Source: a virus (taxonomy: Duplodnaviria; Heunggongvirae; Uroviricota; Caudoviricetes). From it: a DNA stretch of 42,200 bases. Both the position numbers and the translations under genes were made by a program. The notes below the pieces were generated by a model. The model did no database searches, was not told the DNA's origin, and was given only the letters and a program-made list of their open reading frames with translations. The DNA lies in the IMG/VR virus record IMGVR_UViG_2522572164_000007. One strand, written 5' to 3'. This document shows positions 437-41,469 of this stretch, one piece after another (within the stretch, counting starts at the first letter, position 1; each line of letters starts with the position of its first letter).

Positions 437-784
437 TTACAGCATGGTCAGGGAGGTCAGCAGCCGCTTGGGCTGTCGCCAGTCGATACCTTCCAGCAGC
501 ATCGCCAGCTGCGCCTGCGTAAGGAACACTTTGCCATCACGGGCTGACGGCCAGGCGAAGCGCCCACGCTCCAGCCGTTTGGTCAGGAGGCACAGTCCGT
601 CACCGGTGGACCACAGCAGTTTAACCTGACTGCCGCTGCGGCCCCGGAAAATGAAAACATGGCCGGACATGGGATCGTCTTTCAGCGCCGTCTGTACTTT
701 CGCAGCCAGGCCGTTGAAGCCATTTCTCATATCGGTGATACCGGCAACCAGCCAAATTTTGGTCCCGGAAGGTAACGGGATCAT
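437..784 (-). CDS. tnpB: IS66-family accessory protein TnpB (Orf2)
   Basis: 115-aa ORF MIPLPSGTKIWLVAGITDMRNGFNGLAAKV...; recalled IS66 Orf2 signature; 4-nt overlap with tnpA as is typical for IS66. Confidence 0.85.
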   Translation of the reverse strand: MIPLPSGTKIWLVAGITDMRNGFNGLAAKVQTALKDDPMSGHVFIFRGRSGSQVKLLWSTGDGLCLLTKRLERGRFAWPSARDGKVFLTQAQLAMLLEGIDWRQPKRLLTSLTML

Positions 785-1182
785 CGCTTCAGTTCCTGTA
801 TCAGCAGAGTCAGGAGCTTTTCGCTGACATTGCCATTGAAGCGGAGCGTCCCGTGCCGGAACGTTACCTCACAGCTGATACTGAGGGTTTCCGGGTCCTC
901 TGCGAGCGATTCTGGCTGTTCGGCAGCTGCATCGAGAGTCACAGGAAGTAGCTGGGGGCTCTCTGAAGAAGGTAATAGCAGCTTTCCCTCACGCAATTGT
1001 TGTCGCCATTTGAACAACAGATTGGCGTTAATGCCATTTTCAAGAGCAAGTTTTGAGATGGATATCCCGGGTTCACAGGAGGCAGCAACGAGCTGCTGTT
1101 TAAATTCGGGAGGATAATTAGGGCAGCCTTTTCGCCTGCCGGGATTCACATTTTTCTGCATATCTGACACTTTGGTTCCCAC
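781..1182 (-). CDS. tnpA: IS66-family TnpA (Orf1), helix-turn-helix protein
   Basis: 133-aa ORF at the expected position and size upstream of tnpB. Confidence 0.75.
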   Translation of the reverse strand: MGTKVSDMQKNVNPGRRKGCPNYPPEFKQQLVAASCEPGISISKLALENGINANLLFKWRQQLREGKLLLPSSESPQLLPVTLDAAAEQPESLAEDPETLSISCEVTFRHGTLRFNGNVSEKLLTLLIQELKR

Positions 1183-2598: not shown

Positions 2599-3168
2599 TC
2601 AACTCCGGCTACAGCCAAAATTGCGCTCACCGGTGCAGTGAGCTTTGGTATGCTCCTTCGCCAGATAGTCAGCACGTTCCAGCACCTGCTGAAAGCCGGT
2701 GTCATCATTACGCGCCAGCCACACCGCCGGCCAGGCCGGAAAATGCACCAGCGTGGCATGGCACCCGACATCCACTCCCAGGGCACTGCACCACGCCTGT
2801 TTAATCATCCCGGCCAGAGACTCCGGAGCGCGGTAATCACCGGCACGACACCAGGTATCCCGGTTGACCAGCAGCATCAGGTGATAGTGTTTTTTACCTT
2901 TGCACTCCCCAAACTCCCGGGCCCAGACGTAATGCAGGGTTGTGGGATGCACGCGTTTACCTTCCCGATGCTTACGTTTCTGGTAAGCGTCGATTCGGGC
3001 TTTCAGGGCATTGATGAAGCGGGATATCACAGCTGCGTCCGTTGCTGCCGGTACATCCGGGAGACGCAGGTCAACCCGCAATGCCGTCAGGCGGGGATGA
3101 ACATTCAGTGCGTGCCGCACCGTCTCACGAATACGTTGCTGCCAGAAGGGGTTGTATTTGTAGGTCAT
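2599..3168 (-). CDS. YagK/YfjJ-like (inovirus Gp2 family) protein
   Basis: ORF 2599..3240 trimmed to the ATG at 3168 with a GGAGA RBS; family assignment is from memory of E. coli cryptic-prophage YfjJ/YagK proteins. Confidence 0.45.
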   Translation of the reverse strand: MTYKYNPFWQQRIRETVRHALNVHPRLTALRVDLRLPDVPAATDAAVISRFINALKARIDAYQKRKHREGKRVHPTTLHYVWAREFGECKGKKHYHLMLLVNRDTWCRAGDYRAPESLAGMIKQAWCSALGVDVGCHATLVHFPAWPAVWLARNDDTGFQQVLERADYLAKEHTKAHCTGERNFGCSRS

Positions 3169-3333
3169 GGTTAAATCTCCGTATGGTTCATACGGAATAG
3201 CCACGTATAGCGCGGCGATTTTTTTGATACCGATTTGCATTTCATTTGATACCGCTGAAAAACGCCGATACGCAACTTATTTGATACTAAATCGGCGCTT
3301 TTCTTTTGAGTTTTAGAATGAGTTTTTAAGCGC

Positions 3334-4071
3334 TCATTCACTCTCTTTCAAACCAGTTTTAACTGTTTGTGGTTTTGGGTAAGGGTGGACTTTGAATAGC
3401 TTTGTGTTGAGGCGTTTTCTGGCCCTCTTGTTCAGAAACCGGATGTAACGAAACTGTCGGAACTTATGCACACTGGCTCTGTCGATATTAGCCCTCAGAT
3501 GTTCACCTCGTTGTCCGCCTCGTTTAATGGCACTCCTGCAAATCTCGTGATACCACTCGCCATCAAGTTCATAGAATGTTGATTCATGGCTGCCTACATA
3601 ATCAAAATTGCTGGCCTGATACACGACACCAAGACAGCCACAACGCTCATCTGCAAACGACTGAACCCACTGTACCTGCGGATAAAGCTGCCTGATTAGC
3701 TTGAGCGCGTAACTGATTGCCCTTGATTCGGAGTTTCTCGGCATACAGTCATGCATCCATAGCCGGTTAAGCTCCATATATTCTCGGTTCTGCGTACCCG
3801 TTACGACGCGTGCACCACTGTTTGGGTTAAGGGCGTAACCCCATTGCATTACGCCAACAAGTTCCCGTTCTGAAAATATACCCAGATGAAGGTAGGAATT
3901 ATTTACGAAACGGTGGCTGTAATGTTTATTGACGATAACCAGTCTGGCCAGCCAGCAACTTATTGTCTCAACCCGCAACTCACGGGAGCCATAACCAACG
4001 ATATTGTCGTTATAGCGAATAAGTTCAGGCGTGCTGATGATACGGGATGTGACTTGCTTTCTGTTCCCCAC
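3334..4071 (-). CDS. mom: Mom-like DNA modification protein
   Basis: 245-aa ORF immediately downstream of, and overlapping, a Com-like zinc-finger gene at the far end of a Mu-like genome; size fits Mu Mom (about 230 aa). Start codon uncertain. Confidence 0.6.
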
Positions 4072-5358: not shown

Positions 5359-7416
5359 TTATGCCGCAGGGGTATTAACCTCAAGGACAACGCTCTCAAA
5401 AGACACGCCATAAGTTGCCCCTTTGGTGACATCTGTCAGTGTCAGCGTATCTTTGGCAGGGGAAAGTGCATCTTTCACCATCTGGAATGCCTGGCCCGGA
5501 GTGCCATCCAGCACAGGCGTTACCTGGGCACTTCCCGCCGTAAACTTCAGGACAAGTGTATGCCACTGGTTATTGTAGGCTCCAAATGATCCCAGTTTCG
5601 TATTCCCCCCTGTTTTATGGTGCATCAGATTTAACTGGCCGCCTGTTGTCTGGAGATAATACGCCATCAGGAACGGTGTGCCTGTACCACTCATGGTTAC
5701 ACCTTCCGGGACCGTATCGGTGTGGAGGTAAATACCCAGAGCAAACTGGCCTTCTTTTACTTCACCTGACAGACGGAATTTACAGGTCAACTGACCACCA
5801 TGCTTCAGAAGTTCACCGGCTGCATCAGTTCCATGGGTAAGCGTCCAGGTTTTTCCGCTTTGTTTGGATACGGTCAACGCTTTACCTTCGTCCGTCAGCT
5901 GGATTGTACCATCTGTAATTTTCCAGCCCTGAGCCGGGGCTTCTCCTGCTGATGCTTTAAGTGAAAGCAGCGTACGGAGTGACGGGGATGTCGGATGGGG
6001 GGACTCACTGCCTCCTGGCTGACTACCTGTCGGCGCTTCCGGTTTCCCACCCGGCGCGGGCTGAGGCAGGGCTTCACCATCAGGGGCCACACCGGCAATA
6101 AATGCAGAGGTCAGACCTGCATATTTAAGAATTGCTGATGCAAAACGATCTGAGACCAGAAAACGGCGCGCCCAGGAGCTAAAATGGGTTGCCCTGGATG
6201 CTGTTGTCCAGTTGCCATCTCCCCGTGATTCCGCACCATAATACCCGGCAGAAGCGATATCCGGGTCGTGCTCCGGCAGGTTGGTCGCGGTTTTATTACC
6301 GAACTCATCGTGCATCAGTGGAACAAAGTGAATGTTCTCGGAAGCCCGGTTTTTATATCCGCTATAAATGGTTTCATATGCCGCCGGGTTCTTCTCTTTC
6401 CAGTCATAGGTTGTGTCACCACATAACCACGGCACACTGTCTGATGAACCACCAATACACTGACCGGAGAAAGCACCAAGATCCGCACGGAATTTTTTCA
6501 CCATCGCAGTAAACTGGGCACCATGCTGGGCCGGGGTCGCTTTAAGGTCTCCTTCCCCCTGAATCCATACGACAGATAACAGCACATTCTTTGGATTCGC
6601 CTCAAGTGCCGCTTTAGTTCGACTGACAAGATCCTGATACAGTGGGGTATCCACTCCCCAGCGTAGTGACGCCTCGGCTGCACCACTTGCCGGATCGAAT
6701 GAGCCAACTGCGCCGGTTGTAAAAGCAGAGCCGCCACGGGCACAGGGAACCAGTAAAATCCCGGCATCAGCAGGAATCACCGGTAATACTTTTTTCGCAA
6801 TATGAAGTCCCTGCCCCACACAACCATACTGCCCTTTTTTCAGGTCTGCTTTTGGATGGTTCAGCAGACTCATATTCTGAACATCATGAAGGCAGTGATC
6901 TGCTGGAATGATTTCATTGTATTTGCAGGGAATACCTCCGGGGGTTTGTGTATTCCTGCGTGCCAGCTGCATAATACGTGGATCAGGACGATCATAAGAA
7001 TCCGGAAGGGGCAACCCTTCACCATAAGATGAAGCATTGGACTGGCCGGCTATAACAATCACGTAATACCAGGAAGGGGAGCTGGAAGCCGTTTCATTTC
7101 CTGCCGGACGGGTATGTGTTTCTGCATTATCCCAGTCTGACGGTTCAGCAGTACCGGCAACATCAGCACTTAACGGAATGACAGCACCAATACCCGCTCC
7201 GGTAATTTCCACGTTCGGATCACCGGATACTGGCCTTACCCACAGGCAATCCTGTGTATTAAAACTGATGAGACAGTCAGCAAATGTCATTCCTCCTTTC
7301 GTTTCAGCAGGAGGAAAGGGAGCCTCAAGAAATGCCGCTGTACCACCGGAAACTTTAACGGTAAAGTTTCCGGGCATTGATGATAGTTGAACCCATTTGG
7401 ACGTCATAATATTCAT
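5359..7416 (-). CDS. Sialate O-acetylesterase, NanS-p-like (SGNH hydrolase) with extra N- and C-terminal domains
   Basis: 685-aa ORF with YVIVIAGQSNASSYGEG (GQSN block of SGNH esterases); overall architecture resembles the prophage NanS-p esterases of enterohaemorrhagic E. coli. Confidence 0.7.
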   Translation of the reverse strand: MNIMTSKWVQLSSMPGNFTVKVSGGTAAFLEAPFPPAETKGGMTFADCLISFNTQDCLWVRPVSGDPNVEITGAGIGAVIPLSADVAGTAEPSDWDNAETHTRPAGNETASSSPSWYYVIVIAGQSNASSYGEGLPLPDSYDRPDPRIMQLARRNTQTPGGIPCKYNEIIPADHCLHDVQNMSLLNHPKADLKKGQYGCVGQGLHIAKKVLPVIPADAGILLVPCARGGSAFTTGAVGSFDPASGAAEASLRWGVDTPLYQDLVSRTKAALEANPKNVLLSVVWIQGEGDLKATPAQHGAQFTAMVKKFRADLGAFSGQCIGGSSDSVPWLCGDTTYDWKEKNPAAYETIYSGYKNRASENIHFVPLMHDEFGNKTATNLPEHDPDIASAGYYGAESRGDGNWTTASRATHFSSWARRFLVSDRFASAILKYAGLTSAFIAGVAPDGEALPQPAPGGKPEAPTGSQPGGSESPHPTSPSLRTLLSLKASAGEAPAQGWKITDGTIQLTDEGKALTVSKQSGKTWTLTHGTDAAGELLKHGGQLTCKFRLSGEVKEGQFALGIYLHTDTVPEGVTMSGTGTPFLMAYYLQTTGGQLNLMHHKTGGNTKLGSFGAYNNQWHTLVLKFTAGSAQVTPVLDGTPGQAFQMVKDALSPAKDTLTLTDVTKGATYGVSFESVVLEVNTPAA

Positions 7417-7506: not shown

Positions 7507-8067
7507 TTATTTTTCCGAAACGCTCGCAGGATAATAACGATAAAGGGTTGAAAGGCCGATATCAAAAATAAGTGCCACCTGTCTTCGACTGACACCCCCG
7601 GCCAGTAAACGCCCGACCTGCTCGTATTGTTCCTGCGTGAGACGACGGGGTCTGCCGCCGGTTCGTCCCCTTTCACGGGCAGCTGCAAGACCAGCCCGTG
7701 TCCGTTCGACAATTAATTCACGCTCCATTTCTGCCAGCGCACCCATTATGTGAAAAAAGAAGCGCCCCATGGGGGTTGACGTATCAATGTTGTCAGTAAG
7801 ACTACGAAAATTTATCCCCTGTTGCTGTAATTCATCTGTCAGCGCAACAAGGTGGCGCATACTGCGCCCCAGCCTGTCCAGTTTCCAGACCATCAGTGTG
7901 TCACCGGGTTTTAGTTTCTTCAGTGCCCGCTTCAGTCCCGGCCGCTGTGTCGTTTTACCACTCATTTTATCTTCAAAAATCTGCTCACATCCTGCACATT
8001 CCAGCGCATTTCTTTGTAAACCTGTGTTCTGGTCATTTGTTGATACGCGTATATAGCCAATCAGCAT
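7507..8067 (-). CDS. gin: Serine recombinase, DNA invertase Gin/Hin/Pin/Cin family
   Basis: 186 aa; MLIGYIRVSTNDQNTGLQRNAL... is the resolvase/invertase catalytic N-terminus, with a C-terminal HTH (GRPRRL...STLYRY). Confidence 0.9.
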   Translation of the reverse strand: MLIGYIRVSTNDQNTGLQRNALECAGCEQIFEDKMSGKTTQRPGLKRALKKLKPGDTLMVWKLDRLGRSMRHLVALTDELQQQGINFRSLTDNIDTSTPMGRFFFHIMGALAEMERELIVERTRAGLAAARERGRTGGRPRRLTQEQYEQVGRLLAGGVSRRQVALIFDIGLSTLYRYYPASVSEK

Positions 8068-31829: not shown

Positions 31830-31898
31830 ATCAGCCTCCGGTTCTCGCGTTCCCGGTAAGTTTAAAATAAAAATCCCGCGTTGTGGCGGGATTTGGGG

Positions 31899-33597: not shown

Positions 33598-33905
33598 TCC
33601 GGTAAAGCTGAAATATGGCACCAGTGCGTCACCTGTCCGTCCTCATCTTCAAGGCAGGCTCCGGTTTCTTCATCAATAAAAAAGCCTTCATACCCCATAT
33701 GGCCGATGCGCAGTTCCTGTTGGTCACCATACTGAACAATCAGCACGACAGCCTCCATATCAGGCGGGAAAGCATCATTCAGTGAATGCCAGGGATAACC
33801 GCGCAAATCCCCGAAATAAACACCGGTCAGCGTTCCGCCACAGACCGGCATTCCGACGGCACACACAAGGGGTTCATCTGATTCAACAAATAATGTCGTT
33901 ATCAT
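33594..33905 (-). CDS. Hypothetical early protein
   Basis: 103-aa ORF; overlap-coupled to its neighbours. Confidence 0.45.
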   Translation of the reverse strand: MITTLFVESDEPLVCAVGMPVCGGTLTGVYFGDLRGYPWHSLNDAFPPDMEAVVLIVQYGDQQELRIGHMGYEGFFIDEETGACLEDEDGQVTHWCHISALPE

Positions 33906-34453
33906 GGCATTAATTCCCGTAATACAACATCTTCGGCAGTCCGACGACGGTGATAAATAAAACTCACCGCGCCCTCGGATAATTCAAATTTCTCGCCGAT
34001 TTCCCTAAAGGTAAGACGCCGTGGTGATTCAGCATCCCGTAATTCACGAATAAGACGAACATCATCGTCAGGTATGCGGGTGAAGGGCAGCAACTCTCCG
34101 TATTTTTTCATGCTTACGCCAATATATCGCGCCCGATTATGGACAGAATCCCGGTCTCGCCCCAGATATTCTCCTATTTGCTTACCGGTCATTGTTCTGG
34201 CATTTTTTCGGATAAATTTATCTTCATCAGGTTTAAATCTGAGGCGTTTGCATTTGAGCAACTCCGGGTAAGTACCGCGTAATAAAACAATCCGGTTATG
34301 TACACCCCAGAAACTTCTTTTTATCCTGACAGCAATATCCTTAACCGGGGTGGATGGATAAAGCGCAATCAGCAGCGCATCTTCTTCAGGTGTCCATGCG
34401 CGAACATGAGCGGGTGCACGGCCTTTTCTCCCCATGGGTTGTAATATCATCAT
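33902..34453 (-). CDS. Putative DNA-binding protein with two Myb/SANT-like repeats
   Basis: 183 aa; WTPEEDALLIALY...GVHNRIVLLR and FKPDEDKFIRKNA...VHNRARYIGV repeats, plus a C-terminal HTH-like segment. Confidence 0.45.
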   Translation of the reverse strand: MMILQPMGRKGRAPAHVRAWTPEEDALLIALYPSTPVKDIAVRIKRSFWGVHNRIVLLRGTYPELLKCKRLRFKPDEDKFIRKNARTMTGKQIGEYLGRDRDSVHNRARYIGVSMKKYGELLPFTRIPDDDVRLIRELRDAESPRRLTFREIGEKFELSEGAVSFIYHRRRTAEDVVLRELMP

Positions 34454-34456
34454 GCA

Positions 34457-34972
34457 TCACCCCCTGACTCGCTTTTCAGCAGCATAAAACTCATCAGACA
34501 GAATTTCGGTCATTTTCTGTTTTGCGGGTTTTACGCCGCACTGAAGGTAAATCACATCGTCAACGCAGAACCACTCCACAGGGCCAAACAGGATTGCCGA
34601 GAAATCAATGCCCAGCCAGAACAACAGTGCATCGGTTCTGGCATACGTGACGGGCGAATATTCACGCCACAGACTGTTAAGTTCGTCAGAGGCAACGCGC
34701 AGGGCTTTGGGAATACGTGATGTGCGCGGTGTGCAGCTCCAGCCATTCGACGCAGTTGGTTTTCGCCATAAATCACGATGAAAAGGATATTTGTCCTCCG
34801 TAAAACGCAGTCCCTTAAAACAAAAACCACTGATACTGAATTCAAATACCGACCGGCACGCAACATTCAGCACGGCCTCAAGGCGTTTCGCCTCATCTTT
34901 TACCGTCTGGCAGTCCTGCTGGTATTTTTGCCATGCAGCCAGCGCGGAAGGGTTTGATGTTTTAAAGAACAT
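34457..34972 (-). CDS. Hypothetical early protein
   Basis: 171-aa ORF in the operon. Confidence 0.45.
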   Translation of the reverse strand: MFFKTSNPSALAAWQKYQQDCQTVKDEAKRLEAVLNVACRSVFEFSISGFCFKGLRFTEDKYPFHRDLWRKPTASNGWSCTPRTSRIPKALRVASDELNSLWREYSPVTYARTDALLFWLGIDFSAILFGPVEWFCVDDVIYLQCGVKPAKQKMTEILSDEFYAAEKRVRG

Positions 34973-35505
34973 TACGCCACCTCCGCTGATATCCCGGCAG
35001 GCGCGGCCGTCCGGTCAACAATCAGGTAACGCAGAACGCGCGAGGTGATATTCCAGCCGCTTAAACCGCAGATAATGACGCCCAGGCGGATGTCGATATA
35101 CGCCATCACAAACTGGGGCACGCCTTCTTTCATGGCCTGCTCATCAACTTCAGCCACCACATAAACGGTTTCACAGGTCAGCACGCCCTGAGCAAATTCC
35201 CACGCCATCGACGGAATATCATGCCCTTCAATCCACGGCAGGGATTTTCTGAAGCTGCACCACTGAACATCATCAGCCGCAGACTCCTGGCTGCATTTGC
35301 GACGAACCGGCTGCACCGGGCGGGGACGCGGAATATCATAAAAACCGTTACATTCCGTCAGCACCCCGGCATCGACCGCATCACGCAGAAAATAAACCAT
35401 CGAGGATGGCGGCATATTCATTTTTTCAGCCAGAATGCCGCAGGTCAGACGCCCGTAAATACTCAGCCAGTTTTTAACCCCTTCAAGCACTTTTGCATCA
35501 ATCAT
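34972..35505 (-). CDS. Hypothetical early protein (possible winged-helix N-terminus)
   Basis: 177-aa ORF. Confidence 0.45.
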   Translation of the reverse strand: MIDAKVLEGVKNWLSIYGRLTCGILAEKMNMPPSSMVYFLRDAVDAGVLTECNGFYDIPRPRPVQPVRRKCSQESAADDVQWCSFRKSLPWIEGHDIPSMAWEFAQGVLTCETVYVVAEVDEQAMKEGVPQFVMAYIDIRLGVIICGLSGWNITSRVLRYLIVDRTAAPAGISAEVA

Positions 35506-35508
35506 GAA

Positions 35509-36051
35509 TTATTCCTCCGTCAGCGCCACATATTCAGAATGTTTAATCTCCTGGCATTCTTCAGGAATACCCCCTTTTATTTCCCTGCCATAAGCGCCTA
35601 CTTTAAACACCACGCACAGGACATCACGGGAGAGCGACGGGGTCCACCAGGAGTCCGTGTTAAACATGGAGGGGATTCTCATTACCCCCAGCTTTTCACA
35701 GAGCCAGACAAGGAAATCAGGACGCTTTCTTAACTCACGTTCAGCGGTTTCAATCATTGCGGCAATCGCCGGACCTTCAGGGCATGACTCATCAGGTCTG
35801 GCAATAAAGCACGGTCCGTCCCCGATAAAAGCCACATCATCGCGCTTACGCCAGCCCGCAGGCAGAGAACCAGAAAAATAAAACTCACTGATTACGTCCA
35901 TGGCGAACGGCTTTAAGCGCAATCCGGCAGCGCCTGTATTTTTCAGTAATGCCCGAAGAATACTGTTGCGTAGCGGTAAAACATCCCGCTGATATTCGGT
36001 TAAATATTTATTTGTGTACACTATGTCTAATTTGAAATAAAAATATGCCAT
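35509..36051 (-). CDS. Hypothetical early protein
   Basis: 180-aa ORF; preceded by a 97-bp non-coding gap after the Gam-like gene. Confidence 0.45.
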   Translation of the reverse strand: MAYFYFKLDIVYTNKYLTEYQRDVLPLRNSILRALLKNTGAAGLRLKPFAMDVISEFYFSGSLPAGWRKRDDVAFIGDGPCFIARPDESCPEGPAIAAMIETAERELRKRPDFLVWLCEKLGVMRIPSMFNTDSWWTPSLSRDVLCVVFKVGAYGREIKGGIPEECQEIKHSEYVALTEE

Positions 36052-41423: not shown

Positions 41424-41469
41424 GTTTACCTAAACCGATAATCAAAACCGGTTATCGATTTAGGTAAAC
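41424..41469. promoter_or_regulatory. Operator-like dyad between ner and the repressor gene
   Basis: GTTTACCTAAACCGATAA - 10 bp - TTATCGATTTAGGTAAAC; 17 of 18 bases form an inverted repeat. Confidence 0.5.

Follow-up and report, generated by a model that had tools for sequence, protein, structure and literature searches.

A predicted D5-like DNA-binding protein with three tandem helix-turn-helix modules in the early operon of a Mu-like prophage of Shiga-toxigenic Escherichia coli

The window analyzed here (the whole 42,200-nucleotide stretch of IMG/VR record IMGVR_UViG_2522572164_000007) is a Mu-like prophage of Shiga-toxigenic Escherichia coli (STEC), near-identical to regions described as "inserted Mu-like phage" in Stx phage records and in O157:H7 chromosomes. 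Its early operon comprises, in order, ner, the transposase genes A and B, small open reading frames (ORFs), gam, a 180-aa ORF and homologs of Mu gp11 and gp12, followed by the gene of interest, several further small ORFs, gemA, mor and lysozyme. The gene of interest occupies 33902–34453 on the minus strand (stop codon 33902–33904 included), begins ATGATG and encodes a protein of 183 aa with a pI of 10.2. A Shine–Dalgarno-like AGGGGG (34460–34465, minus strand, read from the sequence) lies 6 nt 5′ of the ATG within the final codons of the gp12-like gene that precedes it, this Shine–Dalgarno sequence and the upstream stop being 3 nt apart, and the TGA stop of the gene shares an ATGA with the start codon of the next gene, which encodes 103 aa (33902–33905, minus strand). 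From the position of the Shine–Dalgarno sequence at the upstream stop and from the ATGA overlap, it follows that the gene is an internal, translationally coupled member of a long co-directional operon of Mu type, and the first-pass annotation of this ORF as encoding an early-operon protein is upheld, with its exact boundaries and with the minus strand added, as the annotation gave none.

The genes immediately upstream are homologs of Mu gp12 (34457–34972, minus strand; PHROG 2314) and Mu gp11 (34972–35505, minus strand; Pfam Gp11_C, E 8e-40; PHROG 1949), both of unknown function, and beyond them the 180-aa ORF (35509–36051; PHROG 2260) lacks a counterpart in Mu and occurs in only some related prophages. 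Elsewhere in the window, gemA and the Mor-family gene are separated by a strong terminator-like hairpin (31871–31894, minus strand; a T run follows its 9-bp stem), and the interval from gemA to lysozyme holds a single Mor/C-family activator, where Mu carries both mor and C. The divergent repressor/ner intergenic region contains an inverted repeat (41424–41469), near-perfect over 18 nt around a 10-nt spacer, which is probably an operator. Near the right end of the prophage is a homolog of the Mom family of DNA-modification proteins (3334–4071, minus strand; Pfam Mom, E 8e-77), and between mom and a gin-like invertase (7507–8067, minus strand; Resolvase and HTH_7) is a 685-aa ORF (5359–7416, minus strand) with a sialate O-acetylesterase (SASA) domain and DUF6645, which looks like a cargo gene carried within the Mu-like prophage. 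The left part of the window (437–1182, 1516–2345 and 2599–3240, all minus strand) contains IS66-family ORFs (TnpB_IS66, HTH_Tnp_1), two tandem overlapping paralogs with DUF7828 and a zinc ribbon, and a YagK/YfjJ-family ORF.

The AlphaFold2 model of the 183-aa protein, built from a 24-sequence alignment, consists of three three-helix bundles and a C-terminal helix, without beta strands (mean pLDDT 84); the pTM is 0.51, so that the model does not fix how the modules are oriented to one another. All parts of the protein are encoded on the minus strand. A basic N-terminal arm (residues 1–19; 34397–34453) with a net charge of +4, low pLDDT and a motif kept across the family (PMGxxGxxPAHVRA) precedes module R1 (residues 20–62; 34268–34396), a Myb-like bundle with predicted helices at 22–31, 37–44 and 48–59. 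Module R2 (residues 73–115; 34109–34237; helices 75–84, 90–97 and 101–110) is a Myb/GcrA-like bundle and is joined by a linker (residues 116–125; 34079–34108) bearing the family-invariant motif K117-x-G119-(D/E) to module R3 (residues 126–170; 33944–34078), a diverged helix-turn-helix (HTH) with helices at 129–140, 149–156 and 160–169. The C-terminal tail (residues 171–183; 33905–33943) holds a helix at 173–181 and the conserved RxTAxD...LLP. The lack of any HTH or Myb-like fold in a predicted structure had been named at the outset as grounds for abandoning the DNA-binding reading; the model contains that fold.

The first-pass annotation had read the protein as two repeats of the form W/F-x-P-E/D-E-D...HNR plus a C-terminal HTH-like segment. 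R1 indeed starts W20-T-P-E-E-D and carries V51-H-N-R, R2 starts F73-K-P-D-E-D and carries V104-H-N-R, and a degenerate third copy starts I126-P-D-D-D, giving a repeat period of exactly 53 residues. When module profiles cut from the 24-homolog alignment were compared with hhalign, R1 and R2 matched over 42 ungapped columns with a probability of 98.1% (E 9.3e-14), and the match of R2 to R3 was weak but in register (64%, E 6.7e-5). In shuffles of the single sequence, the R1–R2 local alignment score was equaled in 8 of 2000 and the R2–R3 score in 36 of 2000; similarity of R1 to R3 was significant neither by these shuffles nor by hhalign of the family profiles. The shuffles and profile comparisons thus bear out two true repeats followed by a C-terminal HTH-like segment, the latter being the HTH module R3 of the AlphaFold2 model and best seen as a diverged third module.

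Conservation is distributed unevenly over this architecture. In a 30-sequence alignment of the family W20, K117, G119 and D129 are invariant and the family signature reads K-x-G-(D/E)...T-(K/R)-x-x-D-x-D-V-x-L-I-R-x-L-R-D. In the 24-sequence alignment, every module varies most in its third helix (entropy 1.69, 1.81 and 2.02 bits in R1, R2 and R3, respectively), and helices 1 and 2 of R3 are the best-conserved part of the protein (0.48 and 0.24 bits). Charge is likewise divided: the N-terminal arm, R1, the linker and R2 together carry a net charge of +13, and R3 with the tail carries −1.

Its sequence places the gene product in the phage family of D5-like DNA-binding proteins (PHROG 323). Residues 2–182 match the profile phrog_323 ("transcriptional regulator, D5-like") at positions 80–256 with E 7.4e-58, and D5 of phage T5 (T5.118), from which the profile takes its name and which is the founding member of the family, matches the same profile with E 1.2e-71. 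T5 D5 also aligns directly with our 30-sequence family profile (hhalign 97.7%, E 2.2e-12, 24% identity over 166 columns), and the alignment spans all three modules (D5 residues 71–252 on residues 17–183). Both are early-expressed HTH proteins; T5 D5, at 255 aa, shares the three modules and has in addition a 70-residue N-terminal region and a lysine/alanine-rich tail that the prophage protein lacks. Their settings also differ, T5 D5 being a protein of a virulent phage whose gene adjoins replication genes and the prophage gene lying in a Mu-type early operon. T5 D5 binds DNA cooperatively and independently of sequence. Its annotation describes a DNA-binding protein on which DNA replication and late transcription depend and which takes part in shutting off earlier expression (first reported by McCorquodale et al. 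1979, J Virol 29:322, as cited in PMC12630848). This homology lends good support to the first-pass prediction that the prophage protein binds DNA; the DNA binding and the roles in replication and late transcription are experimental for T5 D5, whereas the prophage protein is known here from its sequence and model, and at just 24% identity D5 function may not transfer. Another T5 protein, ORF55 (the trigger of DRT4), was considered as a relative and rejected as unrelated.

Outside phages, a counterpart is the R2R3 DNA-binding domain of eukaryotic Myb. Searched against PDB sequences, the family profile reaches c-Myb R2R3 (1h88_C) with E 5.5e-6 and both repeats in register over residues 19–107; a PDB search with the single sequence gave nothing significant. 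Like c-Myb R2R3, the prophage protein has tandem three-helix repeats of about 52–53 residues starting W-[ST]-x-E-E-D, and in general it shows the Myb/SANT arrangement of tandem repeats of ~50 aa in which helices 2 and 3 form the HTH. Of the three regularly spaced hallmark tryptophans of a Myb repeat it keeps just the first (W20, invariant, with F/W at position 73 and F73 in R2 here), and aliphatic or variable residues stand at the other two positions. It departs from c-Myb in not conserving the base-contacting K/N residues and in having a third module that is not Myb-like. No HTH or Myb model of Pfam reaches its gathering score on the protein itself (Myb, 16.9 bits against a cut-off of 24.4, over residues 19–31 only). 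Several orthologs exceed the Myb threshold (PF00249/PF13921), among them P0045 (32.4 bits) and P0019–P0030, as do many relatives built as repeat arrays.

In fold, the AlphaFold2 model best matches the DNA-binding domain of GcrA and SANT/Myb domains, and a Foldseek search of the whole model against the PDB gave no significant match. Module 2 shares with the DNA-binding domain of Caulobacter GcrA (PDB 5yiu/5yiv) a similar helix 2–helix 3 signature, LGR-x-x-x-V-x-x-R-x-x-x-LG, and a GcrA-like monomeric mode of binding is plausible. GcrA, however, has one such module where the prophage protein has three, and the prophage protein lacks the sigma-70-interacting domain of GcrA.

Many orthologs carry the name "AsnC family protein" in RefSeq and NCBI, and RefSeq names the prophage protein either "DNA-binding protein" or "AsnC family protein". 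The reading as a regulator of the AsnC/Lrp family or of sigma-70 type would draw on this naming, on weak Pfam matches of residues 131–169 (HTH_AsnC-type, 20.9 bits, over residues 131–163 only; Sigma70_r4, 21.5 bits), on the only NCBIfam match (TIGR02937, sigma-70 superfamily, 16.5 bits) and on the sigma-A chains that top the Foldseek PDB list. All three scores, however, lie under the curated cut-offs (27, 24.1 and 42.9 bits, respectively), the matches cover just the generic HTH of module 3, and the sigma-A matches have E about 0.1 and TM 0.18–0.21; the profile of module 3 alone likewise retrieves only generic weak HTH matches in the PDB (SloR, LrpC, FliA). AsnC/Lrp proteins join a winged HTH to a C-terminal alpha/beta RAM domain and sigma-70 factors combine regions 2 and 4, whereas the model here consists of helices only and lacks both a RAM/ACT-like beta domain and sigma region 2. 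Domain architecture effectively refutes both readings, to which we assign hardly any probability, and the RefSeq name "AsnC family" is spurious for this protein.

The first-pass annotation further held that the protein is not part of canonical Mu, and here it has to be corrected. Mu gp9 (Mup09, formerly E8), a 99-aa protein encoded directly upstream of gam, carries the PHROG 323 annotation, matches phrog_323 with E 5.2e-29 and aligns to modules 2 and 3 of the family (hhalign 97.8%, E 8.8e-13, 36% identity); it is a two-module homolog in the same early region, which a tblastn search of phage genomes at E 1e-5, returning no Mu match, had missed. The claim holds to the extent that Mu has no such gene at this position: both genes lie in the early semi-essential region of a transposable phage, but gp9 is upstream of gam and the D5-like gene follows the gp11 and gp12 homologs, where Mu has gp13 and gp14. 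Mu gp9 is confined to modules 2 and 3, with a shorter linker that lacks the K-x-G-D motif. A profile scan of all ORFs in the window detected no paralog, and this prophage has no copy at the gp9 position. Our literature search found no paper mentioning Mup09, Mu gp9 or WP_000973023. Non-essential early functions that stimulate Mu replication ("arm") map to this part of Mu, and we take gp9-type proteins to be candidates for the arm function.

The D5-like gene occurs in about 4% of complete E. coli genomes (232 of 5426). An exhaustive profile search recovered 12,883 representative proteins at E < 1e-3, about thirty of which stand for full-length clusters of about 180 aa, and many of the relatives are long proteins with 4–10 tandem repeats of R1/R2 type (P0035, P0036 and P0043 are made up of such repeats alone); one metagenomic representative (P0033, 807 aa) joins a superfamily-2 helicase (ResIII and Helicase_C) to nine tandem Myb-like repeats. 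Structural neighbors among viral proteins include multi-HTH proteins of jumbo phages and HNH endonucleases. Fusions of the repeat to helicases and to HNH endonucleases, together with these neighbors, mark it as a widely used DNA-targeting module. A scan of species-representative genomes, which says nothing about distribution, gave only one distant Verrucomicrobial match.

We surveyed genomic context at 65 viral-contig loci. About 45 are Mu-like and keep the block of gp11-like, gp12-like and D5-like genes, and 20 are P2-like prophages (integrase, repressor and the gpA replication endonuclease). In 19 of the 20 P2-like loci the D5-like homolog lies directly downstream of a Dam-type adenine methylase, and it is often translationally coupled to a gene for a C5-methylase or a PAPS-reductase-like protein, followed by gpA. 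Two loci exemplify these coupled early blocks: L054 (5057–10052) encodes a Dam-type methylase, the D5-like protein, a PAPS-reductase-like protein and gpA, and L057 (4993–9972) has a C5 cytosine methylase in the third place. Together with the structural match to the GcrA DNA-binding domain, and with mycobacteriophage matches inside or beside methylase or HNH genes, the methylase neighborhood raises the idea of a GcrA-like protein that reads N6-methyladenine and so links the methylation state of DNA to RNA polymerase. We consider this quite improbable: the sigma-interacting domain is missing, Pfam GcrA (PF07750) does not match the protein, and of the residues that form the m6A pocket of GcrA (R33, N34, I37 and G38, the last two as reported in PMC5887438), the equivalents of I37 and G38 are H and N here and variable across the family. 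In addition, the homolog in the early operon of the cultured P2-like Citrobacter phage Shae_phiSM has no methylase nearby, nor does the gene in the Mu-like context, which weakens any obligatory link with DNA methylation; the Shae_phiSM case shows the methylase association to be frequent rather than obligatory.

The pattern of variation among alleles bears on how the gene evolves. Relative to the related Mu-like prophage L038, nucleotide identity is 90–98% in the flanking genes and 57–87% within the D5-like gene, and the drop is bounded by the ends of that gene. Synonymous divergence is 0.70 in the gene (1.35 in module 3) with a dN/dS of 0.24, compared with dS of 0.13–0.21 and dN/dS of 0.07–0.21 in three neighboring genes. 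An allele 72–73% identical to the one studied here occurs at 19 loci whose neighboring genes are 91–98% identical, and the amino-acid changes that set alleles apart are concentrated in the third helix of each module and in the loop that follows. Positive selection as the source of this divergence was rejected (dS is 3–5 times that of the flanks, at dN/dS 0.24); since dS is raised relative to the flanks and dN/dS is 0.24, the comparisons indicate that the gene behaves as an allelic cassette, swapped for an older allele by recombination and held under purifying selection.

Cassette-like replacement with sharp edges, and occurrence in unrelated phage backbones, could also be expected of a homing endonuclease remnant that has lost its nuclease and survives as a selfish DNA-binding cassette of little use to the phage. 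Weak matches to homing-endonuclease models exist (PADLOC HEase, E 0.0035; the homing/HNH endonuclease models PHROGs 1891 and 6156), and structural neighbors are annotated as endonucleases. The matches concern the DNA-binding part only, however (positions 3–152 of 266 in the PADLOC model); a nuclease domain is absent from the protein, in which the Pfam search finds no HNH domain, and from adjacent genes. Purifying selection (dN/dS 0.24), a fixed and translationally coupled operon position in more than 40 Mu-like loci, presence in 232 complete E. coli genomes and retention of homologs in T5, where D5 is functionally important, all speak against a useless remnant, which we judge decidedly improbable.

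A stronger competitor is a lineage-specific, sequence-specific transcription factor, each allele of which would recognize a composite site of its own in phage or host DNA, in line with the first-pass suggestion that the protein could regulate host or phage genes. Allele differences fall in helix 3 of all three modules with helices 1 and 2 near constant, the exchanged segment ends at the gene boundaries, and the Myb R2R3 and GcrA relatives are sequence-specific binders (PMC5887438). Against it, a target-site search of the early region yielded no candidate site or repeated motif (direct and inverted repeats were short two-copy matches at chance-level counts), and the T5 D5 annotation and PMC12630848 describe a DNA-binding protein and name no specific site. 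The allele difference, moreover, reflects older divergence (dS 0.70 vs 0.13–0.21) and not positive selection, and the variable third helices could mark relaxed constraint instead of divergent specificity. Scans for promoters and terminators in the early region gave counts no higher than chance. We therefore hold this reading to be possible but the less probable course.

On balance we favor, with moderate confidence, the view that the protein is a D5-like DNA-binding protein with three Myb/SANT/homeodomain-like modules that, by analogy with T5 D5, most likely has an accessory role early in the phage cycle. Helix 3 of each module would dock in the major groove of DNA, in the manner of c-Myb R2R3 or the GcrA DNA-binding domain, and the basic N-terminal arm, R1, linker and R2 would supply most of the affinity for DNA. 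The neutral, best-conserved surface of R3 helices 1 and 2, with the C-terminal tail, would probably engage a conserved partner or fix the geometry. Against DNA binding, SANT-type modules can make protein–protein instead of DNA contacts. The protein would influence phage DNA replication or transposition, the switch from early to late transcription, or both, rather than act as a classical repressor.

According to a 2026 preprint, the HTH protein T5 D5 binds type IX retron msdDNA, thereby bringing about abortive infection, and is mildly toxic by itself (10.64898/2026.07.11.737809). One might accordingly picture the prophage gene as a cassette of lineage-variable DNA-binding specificity, whose recognition helices diverge and whose alleles are swapped since DNA-decoy immune sensors detect the D5-like family; in a variant of this picture, the protein could work with the neighboring Dam-type methylases of P2-like prophages. 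We think this unlikely, but if it were true prophage alleles would differ in the sensors that they trigger or evade.

HTH DNA-binding proteins are common in phage early operons, and nothing about this one is surprising in kind: it is a fairly ordinary member of a known but poorly studied phage family. The analysis nevertheless corrects a misleading database name ("AsnC family protein") and links three genes that had stood unconnected, namely an early gene of an STEC Mu-like prophage, Mu gp9/E8, whose function has been unknown ever since the Mu genome was annotated, and the experimentally studied D5 of T5. Through the link to T5 D5, part of the poorly understood semi-essential early region of Mu acquires a concrete hypothesis, and, as T5 D5 has been reported to trigger a retron, the D5-like proteins of temperate phages may matter in interactions between phages and bacterial defenses.
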